Assembly (NCBI GenBank): GCA_014762505.1
Contig: JABURS010000029.1
Coordinates: forward strand, 60,178-124,177
From: Chromatiales bacterium
Lineage (GTDB): Bacteria; Pseudomonadota; Gammaproteobacteria; SpSt-1174
Direction of reading: 5' to 3'
DNA: 64,000 nt
Shown: in pieces, positions 2,721-12,308 of the stretch
Numbering within the stretch: the stretch's first letter is position 1
Layout: the number at the start of each line of letters is the position of its first letter
Translations under genes and position numbers: made by a program
Notes under the pieces: model-generated
Database searches by the model: none
Told to the model about the DNA's origin: nothing
What the model saw: only the letters and a program-made list of their open reading frames with translations

Positions 2721-4175
2721 TTAAGCGTTGGCCATCTTGGCGGCGATCTTGGCTTCGATCGCGGCCTGCTCGCGCTTGGCAGCGCGCACGGTCATGTAGA
2801 AGTTGTACGCCATGATCACGGCACCGGTGAGGAAGAACATGCCACCGATGGCGCGGACCACGTACGGGCCGTGCAGGAAGGTCACGGATTCGACGAAGGT
2901 GTAGGCCAGGTTGCCGTACTCATCGAAGGCACGCAGCATCAGGCCCTGACCGATACCGGCAACCCACATCGCGGTGATGTAGAGCACGATACCGATAGTG
3001 GCCAGGAAGAAGTGCACGTAGATCAGCTTGATGCTGTAGATCTTCGTATCCCAGAGGCGCGGCACCATGTGGTACAGCGAGCCGATGGACACCATCGCCA
3101 CCCAGCCCAGCGCACCGGAATGCACATGGCCGACGGTCCAGTCGGTGTAGTGCGAGAGGGCGTTGACGCTCTTCAGTGACATCATCGGACCTTCGAAGGT
3201 CGACATGCCGTAGAACGACAGCGAGGTGATCAGGAACAGCATGATCGGGTCGGAGCGCAGCTTATCCCAGGCGCCCGAAAGGGTCATGATGCCGTTGATC
3301 ATGCCACCCCAGGACGGCAGCAGCAGCAGGATGGAGAAGGTCGCGGCCAGCGACGAGGTCCAGTCCGGCAGCGCGGTCCAGTGCAGGTGATGCGCACCCA
3401 CCCACATGTACAGGAAGATGATCGCCCAGAAGTGGATGATGGACAGGCGGTAGGAATACACCGGACGACCCGCCTGCTTGGGCACGAAGTAGTACATCAT
3501 GCCGAGGAAGGCCGCGGTCAGGAAGAAGCCCACCGCGTTATGGCCGTACCACCACTGGGTCATGGCATCCTGCACGCCCGAGAACAGGCTGTAGGATTCC
3601 AGGCTGAACATCGAGACCGGCACCGCCAGGTTGTTGAAGATGTGCAGCAGGGCGGTGGCCAGGATGAAGGCCAGGTAGAACCAGTTCGCCACGTAGATGT
3701 GCGGCTGGGAACGACGGCGCAGGGTCTGGACGTAGATCCAGAAGTAGACCACCCAGGTGACGGCAATCAGGATATCGATCGGCCAGATGAACTCGGCATA
3801 TTCACGGCCCTGGGAATAACCGGCCATGTAACCGATGATCCCGAGCAGCAGGGCGATGTTCCACCCCCAGAAGGTGAAGCCGGCCAGGGCGTCGCTGTAG
3901 AGGCGGGCCTGGGAGGTACGCTGCACCACATAATAAGAAGTGGCGAAGAGCGCGTTACCGCCGAAGCCGAAGATCACGAGGGTGGTATGCACCGGACGCA
4001 GGCGCCCGAAGGTGATCTCCGCGATGTCGAAGTTCAGGAACGGCCAGGCCAGCTCGCTGGCGATGTAAACCCCCGCTCCCATGCCCAAAACGGCCCAAAC
4101 AACGGCCATAATGGCGAATTTCTTGATGATTTCGTAATTATATTGGTCTGTCGATGTTACTGCCGAGTGCGCCAT
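2721..4175 (-). CDS. ccoN: cbb3-type cytochrome c oxidase subunit I
   Basis: Polytopic haem-copper oxidase subunit. The track ORF extends to 4235, but the likely start is [15 protein letters not shown] (ATG rc 4173-4175) with AAGGGG 6 nt upstream. Confidence 0.9.
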
Positions 4176-5273: not shown

Positions 5274-6308
5274 CTAACCTCGCTGTTCAAAGGACGAAGC
5301 CCCCGACCGCAGGATCGCGGCGAGCAGCGTGAGGAGCGACAGCAGCAGGATGGCCGCGACCGCGTTGTGCGCCACGGCCACCGACAGCGGCAGCTGGTAG
5401 ACGATGTTGGAAATCCCCAGCGTGACCTGCGCGCCCAGCACCAGCAGGACGACCAGGGCCGCGCCGCGCAGGCCGTCGCTACGGCGGCCGAAGAGCAGGC
5501 CAATCGCCAGGAGACCGAGGTAGAGCGCGGTGACCAGCGCCCCCAGTCGATGGGTGTAATGGATGGCAGTACGCGCAGGATGGTCCAGCACACCGAATTC
5601 GTAGTTCACGCCCAGGCCACGCCAGAGCACGAAGCCCTCACGAAAATCCATCTCGGGCCACCAGCGTGACTGACACTGGGGGAAGTCCGGGCAGGCCAGC
5701 GCCGCATAGTTGGAACTGGTCCAGCCGCCGAGCGCGATCTGCCCCACCAGGATCACCAGCCCCAGAGTCACCCAGGGCAGGAATCGCCGGTGCCCGTTGC
5801 GCGCGAGCAGCGGCGTTTCACGGCCGCCGATCGCCAGCCACCAGAGCAGGGAGAGCGTGGCGAAGCCACCCAGCAGATGCCCCATGACCACCACCGGCTT
5901 GAGCTGCAGGGTGACGGTCCACATGCCAAGCAGGGCCTGGAAGATCACCAGCCCCAGCAGCAGCAGCGGCAGCAGGACCGGTTGCCGGACGTGCTGGCGA
6001 TTCACCAGTGCCAGCACGGCCAGCCCCAGGATCAGCAGCCCCAGCGTGCCGGCGAAGTAGCGATGGACCATCTCCTTCCAGGCCTTGGGCGCCTCCACCG
6101 GACGCTCCGGGAAGGTGGCATTGGCGCGCGCCACCTCATGCTCGGCCTGCGGCACACCGAGGTGACCATAACAGCCAGGCCAGTCGGGACAACCCAGGCC
6201 GGCATCCGACAGCCGGGTGTAGGCCCCGAGGATCACCACCACTATGGCGAAGACCGTGGCGAACTGGGCGAGCCGGCGGAACAGCCGATGCAGACGGTCA
6301 CTAGCCAA
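5274..6308 (-). CDS. ctaA: haem A synthase (COX15/CtaA)
   Basis: 344 aa polytopic protein with the CPDWPGC and later CPDFPQC motifs typical of CtaA; precedes ctaB. Confidence 0.88.
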   Translation of the reverse strand: MASDRLHRLFRRLAQFATVFAIVVVILGAYTRLSDAGLGCPDWPGCYGHLGVPQAEHEVARANATFPERPVEAPKAWKEMVHRYFAGTLGLLILGLAVLALVNRQHVRQPVLLPLLLLGLVIFQALLGMWTVTLQLKPVVVMGHLLGGFATLSLLWWLAIGGRETPLLARNGHRRFLPWVTLGLVILVGQIALGGWTSSNYAALACPDFPQCQSRWWPEMDFREGFVLWRGLGVNYEFGVLDHPARTAIHYTHRLGALVTALYLGLLAIGLLFGRRSDGLRGAALVVLLVLGAQVTLGISNIVYQLPLSVAVAHNAVAAILLLSLLTLLAAILRSGASSFEQRG

Positions 6309-6903
6309 CTTTGGACACCTTCAGCAGACGTTTGAGATCCTTCATGAGGCCCTTGGCGGTCGCATTGTCGTCATAGCCGAGCACGATGTTGCCCATCGGA
6401 TCGACGAGATAGAGCTGCTGCGCCGGCAGCCCCGCCAGGCCGTCCTCGTCAGCGCCGAGTCTCGCCAGCGGCATGCCCGGGTGTTCCTGCAGGAGACGCT
6501 CGCCCGGGTGCGCATTCGGCGCGGCCTGGAGATAAAGCCGCTGGACGCGCGGGGCATCGCGCCCCAGCGCCAGGCGTGTCTGCCGGGCCTTGAACAGGGC
6601 CGCCTCGCAGGCCAGGTCGCAGGCCCCATCGGCATAGAACACCAGGGTCCAGTGTCCCTCCCAGTAATCGGCCGGCAGCACACTGCCGTTGCGGTCAACG
6701 GCCGGCAGACCTTCCACCGACACCAGCGGCTCGATCAGCCGGCCGTGGTTCGTGTGCGTCGGCGGCGCCCACTCCAGCACCATCATCAGCAGGTAGGCCA
6801 GCAGCAGGGGGCCGACGAAGGCGGCGATCACCCCCAGCAACAACCAGCGTGAACGCGTCACCGACACGCCTTCGCTTCTCAACACCTGTTCACTCATGTG
6901 CAT
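6301..6903 (-). CDS. membrane-anchored CxxxC (Sco/TlpA-like thioredoxin-fold?) protein of the aa3 oxidase assembly cluster
   Basis: 200 aa, one N-terminal TM helix, FYADGACDLAC motif; 8-nt overlap with ctaA and 14-nt overlap with surf1; occupies the slot of the uncharacterised gene between surf1 and ctaA in Pseudomonas-type clusters. Confidence 0.55.
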   Translation of the reverse strand: MHMSEQVLRSEGVSVTRSRWLLLGVIAAFVGPLLLAYLLMMVLEWAPPTHTNHGRLIEPLVSVEGLPAVDRNGSVLPADYWEGHWTLVFYADGACDLACEAALFKARQTRLALGRDAPRVQRLYLQAAPNAHPGERLLQEHPGMPLARLGADEDGLAGLPAQQLYLVDPMGNIVLGYDDNATAKGLMKDLKRLLKVSKVG

Positions 6904-7692: not shown

Positions 7693-7911
7693 ATGATCAT
7701 AAAAATCGCGATTCTGCTTTTGTTTGCGGTCATCCTCGGCAGCCTGGGTTCCGCATTGTTTTATCTGCTCAAGGACCAGGGGGATTCAAAACGCACCGCC
7801 CGGGCCCTGACCATACGCATCGCGGTCTCGATCGCCGCGTTTCTCCTGCTGCTCATCGGCTACTGGGCCGGCCTGATCGAGCCTCACAGCCCCTTCGCCC
7901 CGCCGCAGTAA
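7693..7911 (+). CDS. twin-transmembrane-helix small protein (DUF2909-like) embedded in the cox cluster, opposite orientation
   Basis: MIIKIAILLLFAVILGSLGSALFYLLKDQGDSKRTARALTIRIAVSIAAFLLLLIGYWAG...; two TM helices; ATG at 7693; the track ORF 7540 carries an implausible N-terminal extension. Confidence 0.6.
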   Translation: MIIKIAILLLFAVILGSLGSALFYLLKDQGDSKRTARALTIRIAVSIAAFLLLLIGYWAGLIEPHSPFAPPQ

Positions 7912-7958: not shown

Positions 7959-8825
7959 CTACAGCCAGTAAACGAAGATAAACAGGCCGAGCCACACCAC
8001 GTCGACGAAGTGCCAGTACCAGGCTGCCGCCTCGAAGGCGAAGTGATTCTTCGATGTGAAATGGCCTTTCAGCACCCGGATCAGCATCACGGTCAGCATG
8101 ATGGCACCGATGGTCACGTGCAGACCGTGGAAGCCGGTGAGCATGAAGAAGGTAGAGCCGTAGATGCCCGAGCTCATCTTGAGATTGAGATCCGCATAGG
8201 CATGCATGTACTCATAGGCCTGGAAGCCCAGGAAGATCGCACCCAGCAACACGGTCAGCAGGAGCCCCAGCGCCAGCTGGCCGCGCTTGTCTTCCTTCAG
8301 CGCATGATGCGCCCAGGTGATGGTCGCACCCGAGGTGAGCAGGATGGCCGTATTGAGTGCCGGGATACCCCAGGCACCCATGATCTCGAACTGCCCGCCG
8401 ACCTCACCCGGACCGCCGGTCGGCCAGGCCGCCTCGAAGTTTGGCCAGAGCACGGCATTGGTCGACACGCCGTCGCCTTCGCCACCCAGCCACGGCACGG
8501 AATACTGCCGGGCGTAGAACAGCGCGCCGAAAAAGGCCGCGAAGAACATCACCTCCGAGAAGATGAACCAGAACATCCCCCAGCGGAAGCTGAGGTCCAC
8601 CTGCGCGTTGTAGGCGCCAGACTGGCTCTCCCTGATCACGGTGCCGAACCAGCCGAACATCATCACCAGCGTGATGACGACGCCCACCAGCATCAGCAAT
8701 TGGCCAAAATCCGCACCATTGAGCCAGGATGCAAAGCCCACCAGCAGGGTCGTGAGACCGACCGAGCCGACGATGGGCCAGTGGCTGCCATGCGGGATGT
8801 AATACTGCCCTTGTGCATGAGCCAT
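7959..8825 (-). CDS. coxC: aa3-type cytochrome c oxidase subunit III
   Basis: 288 aa, 7-TM subunit III pattern. Confidence 0.9.
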   Translation of the reverse strand: MAHAQGQYYIPHGSHWPIVGSVGLTTLLVGFASWLNGADFGQLLMLVGVVITLVMMFGWFGTVIRESQSGAYNAQVDLSFRWGMFWFIFSEVMFFAAFFGALFYARQYSVPWLGGEGDGVSTNAVLWPNFEAAWPTGGPGEVGGQFEIMGAWGIPALNTAILLTSGATITWAHHALKEDKRGQLALGLLLTVLLGAIFLGFQAYEYMHAYADLNLKMSSGIYGSTFFMLTGFHGLHVTIGAIMLTVMLIRVLKGHFTSKNHFAFEAAAWYWHFVDVVWLGLFIFVYWL

Positions 8826-8873: not shown

Positions 8874-9419
8874 CTAGTCGTGCAGGGCAATCTTTTGATC
8901 CGTATCAAAAAACGTATATGAAAGGGTGATGGTGGTGACATGGGCCGGCAGCTTCGGGTTGATCACGAAGCTGACCGGCATGTCACGGCCCTCCCCTGCC
9001 TGAAACAGTTGCTGCGTAAAACAGAAACACTCGGTCTTGCTGAAATAGCGGGAGGCGGCATTGGGCGCCACGCTGGGAATGGCCTGGCCGGTGACATCCC
9101 TGTCCGTGAGATTACGGGCATGAAAATTCACCGTGTAGACCTTGCCGGGATGTACCTTCATCTTCGTCACTTCCGGCGCAAACTCCCAACGCAAACCCTG
9201 ATTGAGACTGGTCACGAATTCGACCACGATCTCGCGATCCGGATCGAAGGCATAACTCGCCACCACGGACTCATCGACCACGCCCGTCTTGCCGTTCAAC
9301 CCGGTGATCTCGCAGAAGACGTTATAAAGCGGCACCAGGGCAAAACCGAAACCGAACATCCCCAGCACGAAGATGCCGAGCTTGAACGGGGTTCGGTAGG
9401 TTGCGTAGCGCCCTTTCAT
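8874..9419 (-). CDS. ctaG: cytochrome c oxidase assembly protein Cox11/CtaG
   Basis: MKGRYATYRTPFKLGIFVLGMFGF...; CFCF copper motif; single TM. Confidence 0.88.
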   Translation of the reverse strand: MKGRYATYRTPFKLGIFVLGMFGFGFALVPLYNVFCEITGLNGKTGVVDESVVASYAFDPDREIVVEFVTSLNQGLRWEFAPEVTKMKVHPGKVYTVNFHARNLTDRDVTGQAIPSVAPNAASRYFSKTECFCFTQQLFQAGEGRDMPVSFVINPKLPAHVTTITLSYTFFDTDQKIALHD

Positions 9420-9429
9420 CACGCGCCCC

Positions 9430-9537
9430 TAACGAGTGCCCATGAGGATGAAAAATCCCACATAGAAGCCAATCGCAACCAGCGCGAGTATTGCCAGGGT
9501 GATACGGATGCGGTGTTGCTGTCGTGTATCCTGCATA
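9430..9537 (-). CDS. unannotated 35-codon single-TM ORF between coxA and ctaG (candidate small oxidase subunit)
   Basis: rc: ATG CAG GAT ... = MQDTRQQHRIRITLAILALVAIGFYVGFFILMGTR*; AGGAGG 4 nt upstream; stop about 7 nt before the ctaG start; below the 60-aa track cutoff. Confidence 0.35.
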
Positions 9538-9583
9538 TCGCCTCCTGTTGCCGGGCGGCCGCAACGACCGCCCGGCTGGTTCG

Positions 9584-11158
9584 CTACTTGATTTCAGGCG
9601 CCGTCGTGAAGCTGTGATAGGGCGGCGGGGAGGACAGCGTCCACTCCAGCCCATGCGCACCTTCCCATACCTGATCGGTAGCCTTTTCGCCGCCCCGTAT
9701 CGTCTGGAAGATCAGATAGACGAACAGCAGCTGGGCAAAGCCGAAGCCGAAGGCACCAATCGAGGCGATGGCGTTGAAGTCGGCGAACTGCAGCGCGTAA
9801 TCGGGAATACGCCGCGGCATGCCGGCCAGACCGACGAAATGCATCGGGAAGAAGGTCAGGTTGACGAAGATCGTCGACAGCCAGAAATGCCACTTGCCGA
9901 GCGTCTCGTTATACATGTGACCGGTCCACTTCGGCAGCCAGTAATACACGGCGGCAATGATGGAGAAGACCGCCCCCGGTACCAGCACGTAGTGGAAATG
10001 CGCCACCACGAAATAGGTGTCGTGATACTGGAAATCCACCGGCGCGATGGCGAGCATCAACCCCGAGAAACCGCCAATGGTGAACATGATGACGAAGCCC
10101 AGGGCGAAGAGCATGGGCGTCTCGAAGGTCATCGCCCCCTTCCACATGGTCGCCACCCAGTTGAACACCTTCACCCCGGTCGGCACCGCGATCATCATCG
10201 TGGTCAGCATGAAGAAGAGCTCACCGGCCAGCGGCATCCCCACCGTGAACATGTGGTGCGCCCACACGATGAAGGAGAGGAAGGCGATACTCGCCGTGGC
10301 ATAGACCATGGAGGCATAGCCAAACAGCGGCTTGCGGGCAAAGGTCGGGATGATGCTCGAGGCGATACCGAAGGCCGGCAGGATCAGGATGTACACCTCC
10401 GGATGCCCGAAGAACCAGAAGATGTGCTGGAACATCACCGGGTCACCACCACCGGCCGCACTGAAGAAGCTGGTACCGAAGTACTTGTCGGTGAGCAGCA
10501 TGGTAACCGCCCCCGCCAGCACCGGCATGGTGGCGATCAACAGATAGGCGGTGATCAGCCAGGTCCATACGAACAGGGGCATCTTCATCAGGTTCATGCC
10601 CGGTGCTCGCATGTTGAGGATGGTCGCGATCACGTTGATGGAACCCATGATCGACGAGATCCCCATCAGATGGATGGCGAAGATCACGAAGGGGAATGCA
10701 TCGCCGGTCTGCAGCATGAGCGGGGGATACATGGTCCAGCCACCCGCCGGGCCACCACCATCCATGAAGAGCGTGGACAGCAGCATGGCGAAGGCGAACG
10801 GCAGGATCCAGAAGCTCCAGTTGTTCATGCGCGGCAGGGCCATGTCGGTGGCCCCGACCATCATCGGGATGAGCCAGTTGGCCAACCCGGTAAAGGCCGG
10901 CATGACCACACCGAAGATCATCACCAGCGCATGCATGGTGGTCATGGAGTTGAAGAACTGCGGCTCGACCATCTGCAACCCGGGCTCGAACAGTTCGGCA
11001 CGGATCACCAGGGCCATCGCCCCGCCGATGAAGAACATCAGCAGCGCGAACATCAGGTACAGGCTGCCGATATCCTTGTGGTTGGTGGTGAACAGCCAGC
11101 GCTTGATGCCGCTCGGATGCTCTTCGTGGTGATGCGTTTCGGAAATCACAGCACTCAT
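9584..11158 (-). CDS. coxA: aa3-type cytochrome c oxidase subunit I
   Basis: 524 aa haem-copper oxidase subunit I (MSAVISETHHHEEHPSGIKRWLFTTNHKDIG...). Confidence 0.95.
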   Translation of the reverse strand: MSAVISETHHHEEHPSGIKRWLFTTNHKDIGSLYLMFALLMFFIGGAMALVIRAELFEPGLQMVEPQFFNSMTTMHALVMIFGVVMPAFTGLANWLIPMMVGATDMALPRMNNWSFWILPFAFAMLLSTLFMDGGGPAGGWTMYPPLMLQTGDAFPFVIFAIHLMGISSIMGSINVIATILNMRAPGMNLMKMPLFVWTWLITAYLLIATMPVLAGAVTMLLTDKYFGTSFFSAAGGGDPVMFQHIFWFFGHPEVYILILPAFGIASSIIPTFARKPLFGYASMVYATASIAFLSFIVWAHHMFTVGMPLAGELFFMLTTMMIAVPTGVKVFNWVATMWKGAMTFETPMLFALGFVIMFTIGGFSGLMLAIAPVDFQYHDTYFVVAHFHYVLVPGAVFSIIAAVYYWLPKWTGHMYNETLGKWHFWLSTIFVNLTFFPMHFVGLAGMPRRIPDYALQFADFNAIASIGAFGFGFAQLLFVYLIFQTIRGGEKATDQVWEGAHGLEWTLSSPPPYHSFTTAPEIK

Positions 11159-11180
11159 GATCAGATTCCTCCCGTCGCGC

Positions 11181-12308
11181 TCAGCGCGCCGCCTTGATAT
11201 CGGTGGGTTGGATCACGTCGCCGGTATCGTTACCGAAGGCGTTTCGCTGGTACGTGATCACAGCAGCCAGATCGACGTCGCTGAGTTGCGGGCCGAAGGC
11301 GGCCATCGCCGTGCCCGGTACCCCGTTCATGACGAGATCCACATGCCCCTTGATTTCCCCGGTGGCCACGGCACTGCCCTTGATCGCCGGGAACACGCTG
11401 CCCATGCCCTCGCCATTGGCCTGGTGACAGGCGGCGCAGTTGGTGTTGTAGATCTTCTCGCCGCGGGCCATGAGGTCGCTCTTGCCCCATTCCTTGTCTG
11501 AGGCCATCAGCTCGGCTTCACGCGCCGCCTTCTGCTCGGCCACCCAGTCGAGATACTCGTTCTCCTCCATCGCGACGACCACGATCGGCATGAAACCATG
11601 GTCCTTCCCGCACAGCTCGGCACACTGACCGCGATACACGCCCGGCTCATCGATGCGCGTCCACAGCTCGTTGACGAAACCCGGGATGGCATCTTTCTTC
11701 ATGGCCAGATCCGGCACCCAGAAGGCATGGATCACGTCGTTCGCCGTGACCAGGAAACGGATCTTCTTGTTGATCGGCACCACGATCGGGTTGTCCACGT
11801 CCAGCAGATAATGCTCGCCCTTATCGGCGCGGTTCTCGATCGCGGCACGCGGCGTGGCGAGATTGCTGAAGAAGCCGATGCCCTCGTCCATGTAGTCGTA
11901 GTGCCACTTCCACTGATAGCCGGTGACCTTGATGGTCATGTCGGCATTGCTCGTGTCTTCCATGGCGATCAGGGTCTTGGTGGCCGGAATGGCCATGCCT
12001 ACGAGGATCAGGAAGGGCACCAGGGTCCAGAGAATCTCCACCGTGGTGCTCTCGTGGAACTGGGCCGCCTGTACGCCCCTGGATTTGCGGTGCTTGACGA
12101 TGCTGTAGAACATCGCCCCGAAAACGACGATGCCGATGACAACGCAGATCCAGAAGATCAGCATGTGCAGGTCGTAGACGGTATTGCTGATCTCCGTCAC
12201 GCCCCGCGGCATGTTCACTTCCCAGTCCGCGAAGGCCCCTCCGGCTGACATGGCCAGGGCGATGCCTGACAACGCGGCCACTGCCGGTTTCAACTGCGCA
12301 TTCTTCAT
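11181..12308 (-). CDS. coxB: aa3-type cytochrome c oxidase subunit II with C-terminal cytochrome c domain
   Basis: CuA ligands (CAELCGKDHGFM), signal peptide and TMs, C-terminal CAACH haem domain. Confidence 0.93.
   Translation of the reverse strand: MKNAQLKPAVAALSGIALAMSAGGAFADWEVNMPRGVTEISNTVYDLHMLIFWICVVIGIVVFGAMFYSIVKHRKSRGVQAAQFHESTTVEILWTLVPFLILVGMAIPATKTLIAMEDTSNADMTIKVTGYQWKWHYDYMDEGIGFFSNLATPRAAIENRADKGEHYLLDVDNPIVVPINKKIRFLVTANDVIHAFWVPDLAMKKDAIPGFVNELWTRIDEPGVYRGQCAELCGKDHGFMPIVVVAMEENEYLDWVAEQKAAREAELMASDKEWGKSDLMARGEKIYNTNCAACHQANGEGMGSVFPAIKGSAVATGEIKGHVDLVMNGVPGTAMAAFGPQLSDVDLAAVITYQRNAFGNDTGDVIQPTDIKAAR

Follow-up and report, generated by a model that had tools for sequence, protein, structure and literature searches.

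A conserved single-helix peptide encoded directly upstream of ctaG: a divergent member of the NF038351 family and candidate assembly factor for aa3 oxidase

Between the genes for subunit I (coxA) and for the copper chaperone CtaG/Cox11, the aa3 oxidase cluster on the 64,000-nucleotide stretch of Chromatiales DNA that was analyzed here as a whole (the window) contains a small ORF that, judged by its conservation, can be taken with very high confidence to be a real gene. Its predicted product is a peptide of 35 residues with a single helix through the inner membrane, a divergent member of the family NF038351 whose translation is coupled to that of ctaG, and it probably serves as a one-helix assembly factor for the CuB/haem a3 site. 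The family as such is already known as a curated annotation model, and what is new is the recognition of the window peptide as one of its divergent members.

Results

The coxA-ctaG gap and its small ORF

The features of the locus are compiled in Table 1. A sequence-only reading of the same stretch had described a 161-bp gap between coxA and ctaG with an intercistronic hairpin, followed by an AGGAGG-cgat-ATG opening of a 35-aa ORF whose product was to carry a charged N-terminus and one TM helix and to stop a few nucleotides before ctaG. All of these elements were recovered, the ORF lying on the minus strand and the distance to ctaG being 6 nt. The Shine-Dalgarno sequence is the same in the nearest relative, locus L001. 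The caveat attached to that reading, a low GC3, was factually right as well, with a value of 0.61 for the small ORF vs 0.74-0.86 for neighbouring genes. The start of ctaG is ambiguous between two adjacent codons, and on the metagenome contigs that encode an identical small peptide the gene callers choose the ATG, which yields a protein of 181 aa.

Table 1. Positions of the features discussed, in the window and in loci of relatives.
Feature	Sequence	Position	Strand	Details
Small ORF	window	9429..9536	-	35 codons + TAG stop; product MQDTRQQHRIRITLAILALVAIGFYVGFFILMGTR
Shine-Dalgarno AGGAGG	window	9541..9546	-	4-nt spacer (cgat) before ATG 9536..9534
Stop TAG of small ORF	window	9431..9429	-	6 nt upstream of ctaG GTG
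coxA stop TAG	window	9586..9584	-	
coxA-ctaG gap	window	9423..9583		exactly 161 nt; occupied by small ORF
Intercistronic GC-rich hairpin	window	9550..9576	-	12-bp stem 9576..9565 / 9561..9550, 3-nt loop; just 3' of coxA stop
coxA/ctaD, aa3 oxidase subunit I	window	9584..11158	-	TIGR02891, 706 bits; upstream neighbour
ctaG/cox11, copper chaperone	window	8874..9422	-	NF003465, 227 bits; PF04442; downstream neighbour
ctaG start (ambiguous)	window	GTG 9422..9420 or adjacent ATG 9419..9417	-	
coxB	window	12308..11181	-	aa3 oxidase cluster
coxC	window	8825..7959	-	aa3 oxidase cluster
DUF2909 / NF033233 gene	window	7693..7911	+	inside the minus-strand aa3 cluster
PA0111/PP0108-family gene	window	6301..6903	-	redox-active disulfide protein
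Antisense ORF, 225 aa	window	8940..9617	+	rejected; shadow ORF
Antisense ORF, 557 aa	window	9524..11197	+	rejected; shadow ORF
coxA-ctaG gap, Competibacteraceae	L006	3545..3943		399 nt
coxA-ctaG gap	L043	3416..3973		558 nt
Paracoccus ORF	L085	3220..3477	+	4-nt overlap with ctaG
Paracoccus ORF	L084	about 3226..3492	+	4-nt overlap with ctaG

The hairpin that follows coxA has a folding energy of -28.2 kcal/mol (z = -3.3); it is retained in L001 and is not significant in L002. As it is devoid of a U tract it does not represent a canonical terminator, and an assignment as terminator or known RNA was rejected on this ground as well as for the lack of an Rfam match and the unclear conservation in L002. 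Neither a promoter nor a terminator nor an Rfam family was detected in a scan of the entire coxA-ctaG gap. The hairpin may act as an element of mRNA stability or processing, or may, as a partial attenuator, set the balance between expression of coxBA and of the genes downstream.

The two long antisense ORFs that span ctaG, the gap and coxA were discarded as shadow ORFs of the kind common in coding DNA of high GC content. The rest of the aa3 cluster is formed by an opposite-strand DUF2909 gene, SURF1, the gene for a PA0111-family thiol-disulfide protein, ctaA and ctaB. The DUF2909 gene, annotated by NF033233 as 'twin transmembrane helix small protein', reaches 64.5 bits with this model (cutoff 49) and 79 bits with Pfam; it is convergent with coxC (47 nt) and divergent from SURF1 (44 nt). 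Its product adds a further small and uncharacterised membrane protein to those linked with the oxidase. The PA0111/PP0108-family protein scores 91 bits vs a curated cutoff of 230 and shows weak similarity to SCO1/SenC. Its gene overlaps the 3' end of SURF1 by 14 nt and abuts ctaA, and it appears as a divergent member of another little-studied oxidase-cluster family.

The small ORF is conserved as a gene

We fetched 80 loci encoding CtaG relatives and were able to measure the interval between coxA and ctaG in 79 of them. The distribution of gap lengths is bimodal, with at least 100 nt in 58 loci and approximately 0-80 nt in the other 21, the latter including Colwellia, Alkalimonas, Rheinheimera, Marinobacter, Pseudomonadales, Kangiellaceae and others. 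In the gaps of at least 100 nt we searched the coding strand for ORFs of 28 aa or more that contain a TM helix, the latter defined as a strongly hydrophobic stretch of 17 residues. Such an ORF was present in 57/58 long gaps, while the reverse strand gave 0/58 and shuffled gaps gave 16/2900 (0.55%). Two loci stand out by gaps of atypical length, L006 from the Competibacteraceae (399 nt) and L043 (558 nt). The former is the sole long gap without a TM ORF, and in the latter the small ORF is still found at the ctaG-proximal end.

At the nucleotide level the ORF bears the marks of selection on its product. In comparison with the nearest relative, whose CtaG is 96% identical, 10 codons differ, 9 of them by synonymous exchanges and 1 by a non-synonymous one, and substitutions pooled over close pairs are distributed over codon positions 1/2/3 as 136/103/336. 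Conservation of the frame with synonymous drift among relatives, which the sequence-only reading had named as the check to be made, was thus found both in the closest pair (9/10 synonymous) and across the 57 of 58 loci.

A divergent member of NF038351

When scanned directly against NCBIfam and Pfam, the 35-aa peptide gave no relevant match. With NF038351 (cyt_ox_assem_30, 'cytochrome oxidase small assembly protein') in particular, no match was obtained at E <= 1 and the curated cutoff of 27.5 bits was not reached; the close relative from L002 did not match this model either. The same model was matched by 15/58 of the syntenic relatives, and the one from L021 passes the curated cutoff with 30.7 vs 27.5 bits. 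The homologue search was based on an alignment headed by a 46-aa relative, and a profile that included the window peptide was used for an exhaustive search of 1.84 billion cluster representatives. This retrieved 865 representatives of clusters at 50% identity at E <= 1e-3, nearly all of them 33-60 aa in length, so that the family comprises at least 865 such clusters. Among 143 profile-retrieved representatives, 68 matched NF038351, with a best E-value of 7.3e-16, and every other NCBIfam model was matched by at most three.

In order to avoid circularity, an independent HMM was built from 126 representatives that are all less than 43% identical to the window peptide. It assigns the peptide 31.4 bits (E = 3.5e-9), a result unique among the 596 ORFs of the window, the next best of which scores 6.9 bits. 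Applied to the 80 loci, the family HMM recognised 48 of the 58 gap peptides and nothing else among 6060 ORFs. The window peptide also has the format of the family, a length of approximately 30-50 aa and, in register, a single TM helix preceded by a basic juxtamembrane patch, and its gene has the family context, lying immediately before ctaG/cox11 in a cluster for aa3 oxidase. It deviates at two of the strongest columns of the family, where arginine is replaced by isoleucine and alanine by leucine, so that the window peptide reads RIRITL where the family has (A/N)xRTA. The substitution of these near-invariant residues explains why the peptide misses the NF038351 threshold, and by its profile scores, format and context we regard it as a bona fide, albeit divergent and sub-threshold, member of the family.

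An identical peptide has been called on three metagenome contigs, each time just upstream of a CtaG_Cox11 gene and each time unnamed, and related proteins from GenBank MAGs are labelled 'hypothetical protein'. The searchable literature yielded no experimental work on any member of the family, and no paper was found on the bacterial peptide under its NCBIfam name, under coxF/coxG, or as Coa3 in bacteria or proteobacteria. A mention of 'ctaF1' in Bordetella was followed up and set aside, as no tie to NF038351 could be established. Note that the word 'assembly' in the name of the family is an annotation label and describes a putative function.

The claim that the ORF encodes a cryptic small oxidase subunit therefore stands in part. 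It is a genuine single-TM gene dedicated to the aa3 cluster, but at the level of the family, which NF038351 already describes, it is not cryptic.

Helix architecture and conserved face

The window peptide consists of a polar and basic N-terminus (R5, H8, R9, R11), one TM helix from about I12 to M32 and a tail of 3 residues. Throughout the family, the N-terminus is variable and acidic or polar; the basic patch (R 0.80 ... R 0.88, T 0.66, A 0.83) comes next, and some 20 residues of helix lead to a tail that is very short. By the positive-inside rule the peptide should adopt an N-in/C-out topology, with the basic patch on the cytoplasmic side and the very short tail in the periplasm.

Conservation along the helix is periodic. 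Its Fourier spectrum peaks at 100 degrees per residue, and only 3/5000 shuffles match that power. The residues of the conserved face, A26, L29, A33, F36/Y37 and F40 in family numbering, correspond to L14, L17, A21, F24, Y25 and F28 of the window peptide, with a family consensus of A, L, A, F/I, Y, F, and the motif R..RTA...L...A..FY..F is common to hundreds of clusters. Such one-sided conservation is the signature of specific helix-helix packing rather than of a generic membrane anchor.

Coupling to ctaG and distribution

The stop codon of the small ORF overlaps the start of ctaG by 4 nt in 17/57 loci, and in most of the others the distance is between -1 and +8 nt. On its other side, a spacer and the hairpin separate the small ORF of the window from coxA. 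Judged by this arrangement, translation of the small gene is coupled to that of ctaG and not to that of coxA. In the 21 loci where coxA abuts ctaG no copy of the gene is present, and a search with the family HMM detected no relocated copy within about 4 kb of these loci. This absence implies that the gene is dispensable, or has been replaced, in several gammaproteobacterial orders.

Remote similarity to mitochondrial COA3

Among Pfam families, Coa3_cc (PF09813) is the one most often matched by the relatives of the window peptide, in 19/58 of the syntenic and 21/143 of the profile-retrieved sequences. Best E-values range from 3.7e-5 to 4.9e-5, all scores lie below the gathering threshold (11-23 vs 27 bits, with 11-20 bits in a detailed scan), and the matches cover profile positions of about 2-36 of 48, corresponding to the juxtamembrane patch and the TM helix. 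Yeast Coa3 itself scores just 21.3 bits with this model. The window peptide does not match Coa3_cc, and human COA3, with 8.5 bits, is not recognised by the bacterial family HMM.

The comparison was extended to profile-profile alignments with hhalign. The syntenic family alignment (A2) aligned with 13 vertebrate COA3 sequences at a score of 33.8, a probability of 91.8% and P = 7.4e-7 over 30 ungapped columns, with the elements R.RN..T and [F/I]Y...F in register. The independent alignment of 143 members (A6) gave a score of 29.0 and 75.6% in the same register. When the columns of COA3 were permuted separately in the basic patch and in the TM segment, scores fell to 13.4 +/- 3.1 with a maximum of 23.3, and with shuffling in the TM segment only to 14.3 +/- 3.0 with a maximum of 22.0; in either case 0/150 reached the observed value. 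The true orthologues vertebrate COA3 and yeast-lineage Coa3, aligned as a control, scored 35.0 with 84.6%, on a par with the 33.8 of the bacterial family vs vertebrate COA3.

Decoy anchors taken from the N-termini of CtaG, SURF1, PA0111, DUF2909 and CoxB stayed below the score of the bacterial family vs vertebrate COA3; they gave 11-18 with COA3 and 10-24 with the bacterial family, in the latter case at probabilities of up to 68%. A fungal-only Coa3 profile gave a score of 14 with the bacterial family, which is the level of the decoys, and a combined COA3 profile gave 25-29, where decoys reached 9-16. As unrelated anchors consisting of a basic patch and a TM helix attain hhalign probabilities of up to 68%, profile-profile evidence is soft in this case, and with 84.6% obtained for true orthologues the default probabilities are unreliable for mini-TM proteins unless calibrated with decoys. 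Taking all alignments together, we consider a link to COA3 plausible but unproven, with chances somewhat short of even.

Discussion

A putative assembly factor and its alternatives

The findings raise the question of the function of a peptide that consists of little more than one membrane helix. In the mechanism that we propose, it would be made from a coxB-coxA-[small]-ctaG-coxC transcript and co-translated with the CuB chaperone CtaG/Cox11. The conserved face of its helix (L14, L17, A21, F24, Y25, F28) would pack on a TM helix of a partner, which might be the anchor of CtaG, nascent subunit I, or both. In this way it could keep apo-CoxA accessible for CtaG while the CuB/haem a3 site is formed, an action modelled on mitochondrial COA3, which holds newly made Cox1, and it would afterwards depart or remain just loosely bound. 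Coupling to the gene of a chaperone, together with the loss of the peptide in lineages that keep the oxidase, favours such an accessory factor.

The peptide might instead persist in the mature aa3 oxidase as a small structural subunit in stoichiometric amount, bound to subunits I/III as a functional analogue of the subunit IV of Paracoccus/Rhodobacter; a small subunit of this type was what the sequence-only reading had suggested. We hold this to be rather unlikely, though it has points in its favour. The gene is part of the structural operon, where it lies between coxA and coxC; permanent packing would agree with a single TM helix that is conserved on one side; and known subunit IVs are likewise single helices of about 50 aa. 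Nevertheless, neither of the family profiles, A2 or A6, matched any oxidase chain of the PDB at E <= 10, subunit IV included, and the library searched includes subunit IV as part of the enzymes from Paracoccus and Rhodobacter. A search for a solved or purified aa3 oxidase from a confirmed carrier organism was negative, and since the carriers are gamma- and betaproteobacteria whose enzymes are not among the solved ones, the absence of the peptide from known structures is uninformative and speaks for neither side. As regards the genes, the 4-nt overlaps are formed with ctaG, whereas coxA is followed by a gap and the hairpin, and the small gene is missing from many gammaproteobacteria that retain the same oxidase genes. 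Moreover, the curated name of the family and its sole remote similarity, COA3, both point to an assembly factor. Positive evidence for a structural subunit of the subunit IV type did not emerge.

Purifying selection and syntenic conservation jointly lead us to reject two further explanations. According to the first, the ORF would be a leader whose translation opens the hairpin-proximal mRNA and feeds ribosomes to a weakly initiated ctaG, the peptide itself being functionless. Several features of the locus would fit, namely a strong Shine-Dalgarno sequence of its own next to a ctaG with a GTG/ATG start and a poor one, a stop codon 6 nt from the ctaG start with frequent stop/start overlaps in relatives, and a hairpin immediately upstream. 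Yet it is the amino acid sequence that is under purifying selection, the motif R..RTA...L...A..FY..F is conserved with helical periodicity over hundreds of clusters, and genomes that do not have the ORF express ctaG directly after coxA, all of which makes a mere leader very improbable. The idea that the ORF arose by chance in intergenic DNA of high GC content, for which the low GC3 of 0.61 relative to its neighbours and the lack of a direct match of the window peptide to curated families might have spoken, is refuted by the occurrence in 57/58 gaps vs 0/58 on the reverse strand and 0.55% after shuffling, by synonymous drift and by the independent HMM (E = 3.5e-9).

Significance for oxidase biogenesis

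In reviews of bacterial aa3 oxidase biogenesis the factors listed are Cox10, Cox15, Surf1, Sco/PCuAC and Cox11, and the peptide is not mentioned (PMC9145763; PMC9232578). The count given in one of them is five biogenesis factors (PMC9232578), and neither Coa3 nor a peptide of this kind is mentioned in a survey from 2022 on the assembly proteins of bacterial oxidases (PMC9145763). In many gamma- and betaproteobacteria, however, the small gene is among those most consistently linked to the cluster, fixed directly upstream of ctaG, while divergent members such as the window peptide score too low for the curated model and carry either no name or the label 'hypothetical'. We therefore regard this neglected and widespread family as a candidate for a sixth biogenesis component.

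Comparison with known systems

The closest known system is the NF038351 family itself, with which the window peptide shares its size class, the architecture of a basic patch plus one TM helix and the position directly upstream of ctaG. Subunit IV (CtaH) of the oxidases from Paracoccus denitrificans and Rhodobacter sphaeroides is likewise a small single-helix peptide of an A1-type aa3 oxidase, but it has no detectable sequence similarity to the window family. The ctaH gene is encoded away from the cta operons, unlike the window gene, which is always fixed beside ctaG.

In Paracoccus ferrooxidans and P. denitrificans an ORF of 85-89 aa, annotated as 'hypothetical protein', is located between ctaB and ctaG. 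As in the window ORF, a basic patch (KRRRSRN) is followed by one TM helix and the gene lies immediately upstream of ctaG, but the product is twice as long and has a Pro/Ala-rich periplasmic tail. The family HMM assigns it about 4 bits and Coa3_cc 11.6 bits, and neither NF038351 nor any PDB chain was matched. By these scores the Paracoccus ORF seems to be a positional analogue only of the window ORF. An argument that the family cannot be a subunit because this ORF is missing from the crystallised four-subunit enzyme was dropped, as the family HMM does not recognise the ORF.

The remaining system for comparison is mitochondrial COA3, also named Cox25, CCDC56 or MITRAC12. To our knowledge, the Mss51-type translational feedback served by yeast COA3 has no bacterial counterpart. 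Bacterial peptides have neither the N-terminal matrix segment nor the C-terminal coiled coil of COA3, and the window peptide ends 3 residues past its helix. In the alignment with vertebrate COA3 the two show, in a common register, a juxtamembrane R.RN..T and, some 11 residues inside the helix, an [F/I]Y, and both are dedicated to cytochrome oxidase. COA3 is a single-pass protein with its N-terminus inside (PMC2953447), and by the positive-inside rule the bacterial peptide should be oriented likewise. The yeast protein exposes its C-terminus to the IMS, and it binds and stabilises newly synthesised Cox1 (PMC2953447). Human COX11 occurs in complexes with COA3 (PMC9232578), and the window gene sits between cox1 and cox11.

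According to a 2019 review, Coa3 and Cox14 are 'not present in bacteria' (PMC6696091). If the link to COA3 is true, it contradicts this statement as far as Coa3 is concerned, and the family would offer a minimal bacterial system for the handover of nascent subunit I to Cox11. We tentatively entertain, while leaning slightly against it, the possibility that the bacterial family is the ancestor, and thus the orthologue, of mitochondrial COA3. The Cox1-holding step might then, with similar reserve, have pre-existed in proteobacteria as a minimal helix of 35-45 residues co-translated with Cox11, and it is conceivable, if again not quite an even bet, that the matrix and coiled-coil extensions were added later by eukaryotes. 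Should this be so, a step that reviews call a eukaryotic invention would already have been proteobacterial, and the window gene would represent a minimal and genetically tractable model of COA3 function.
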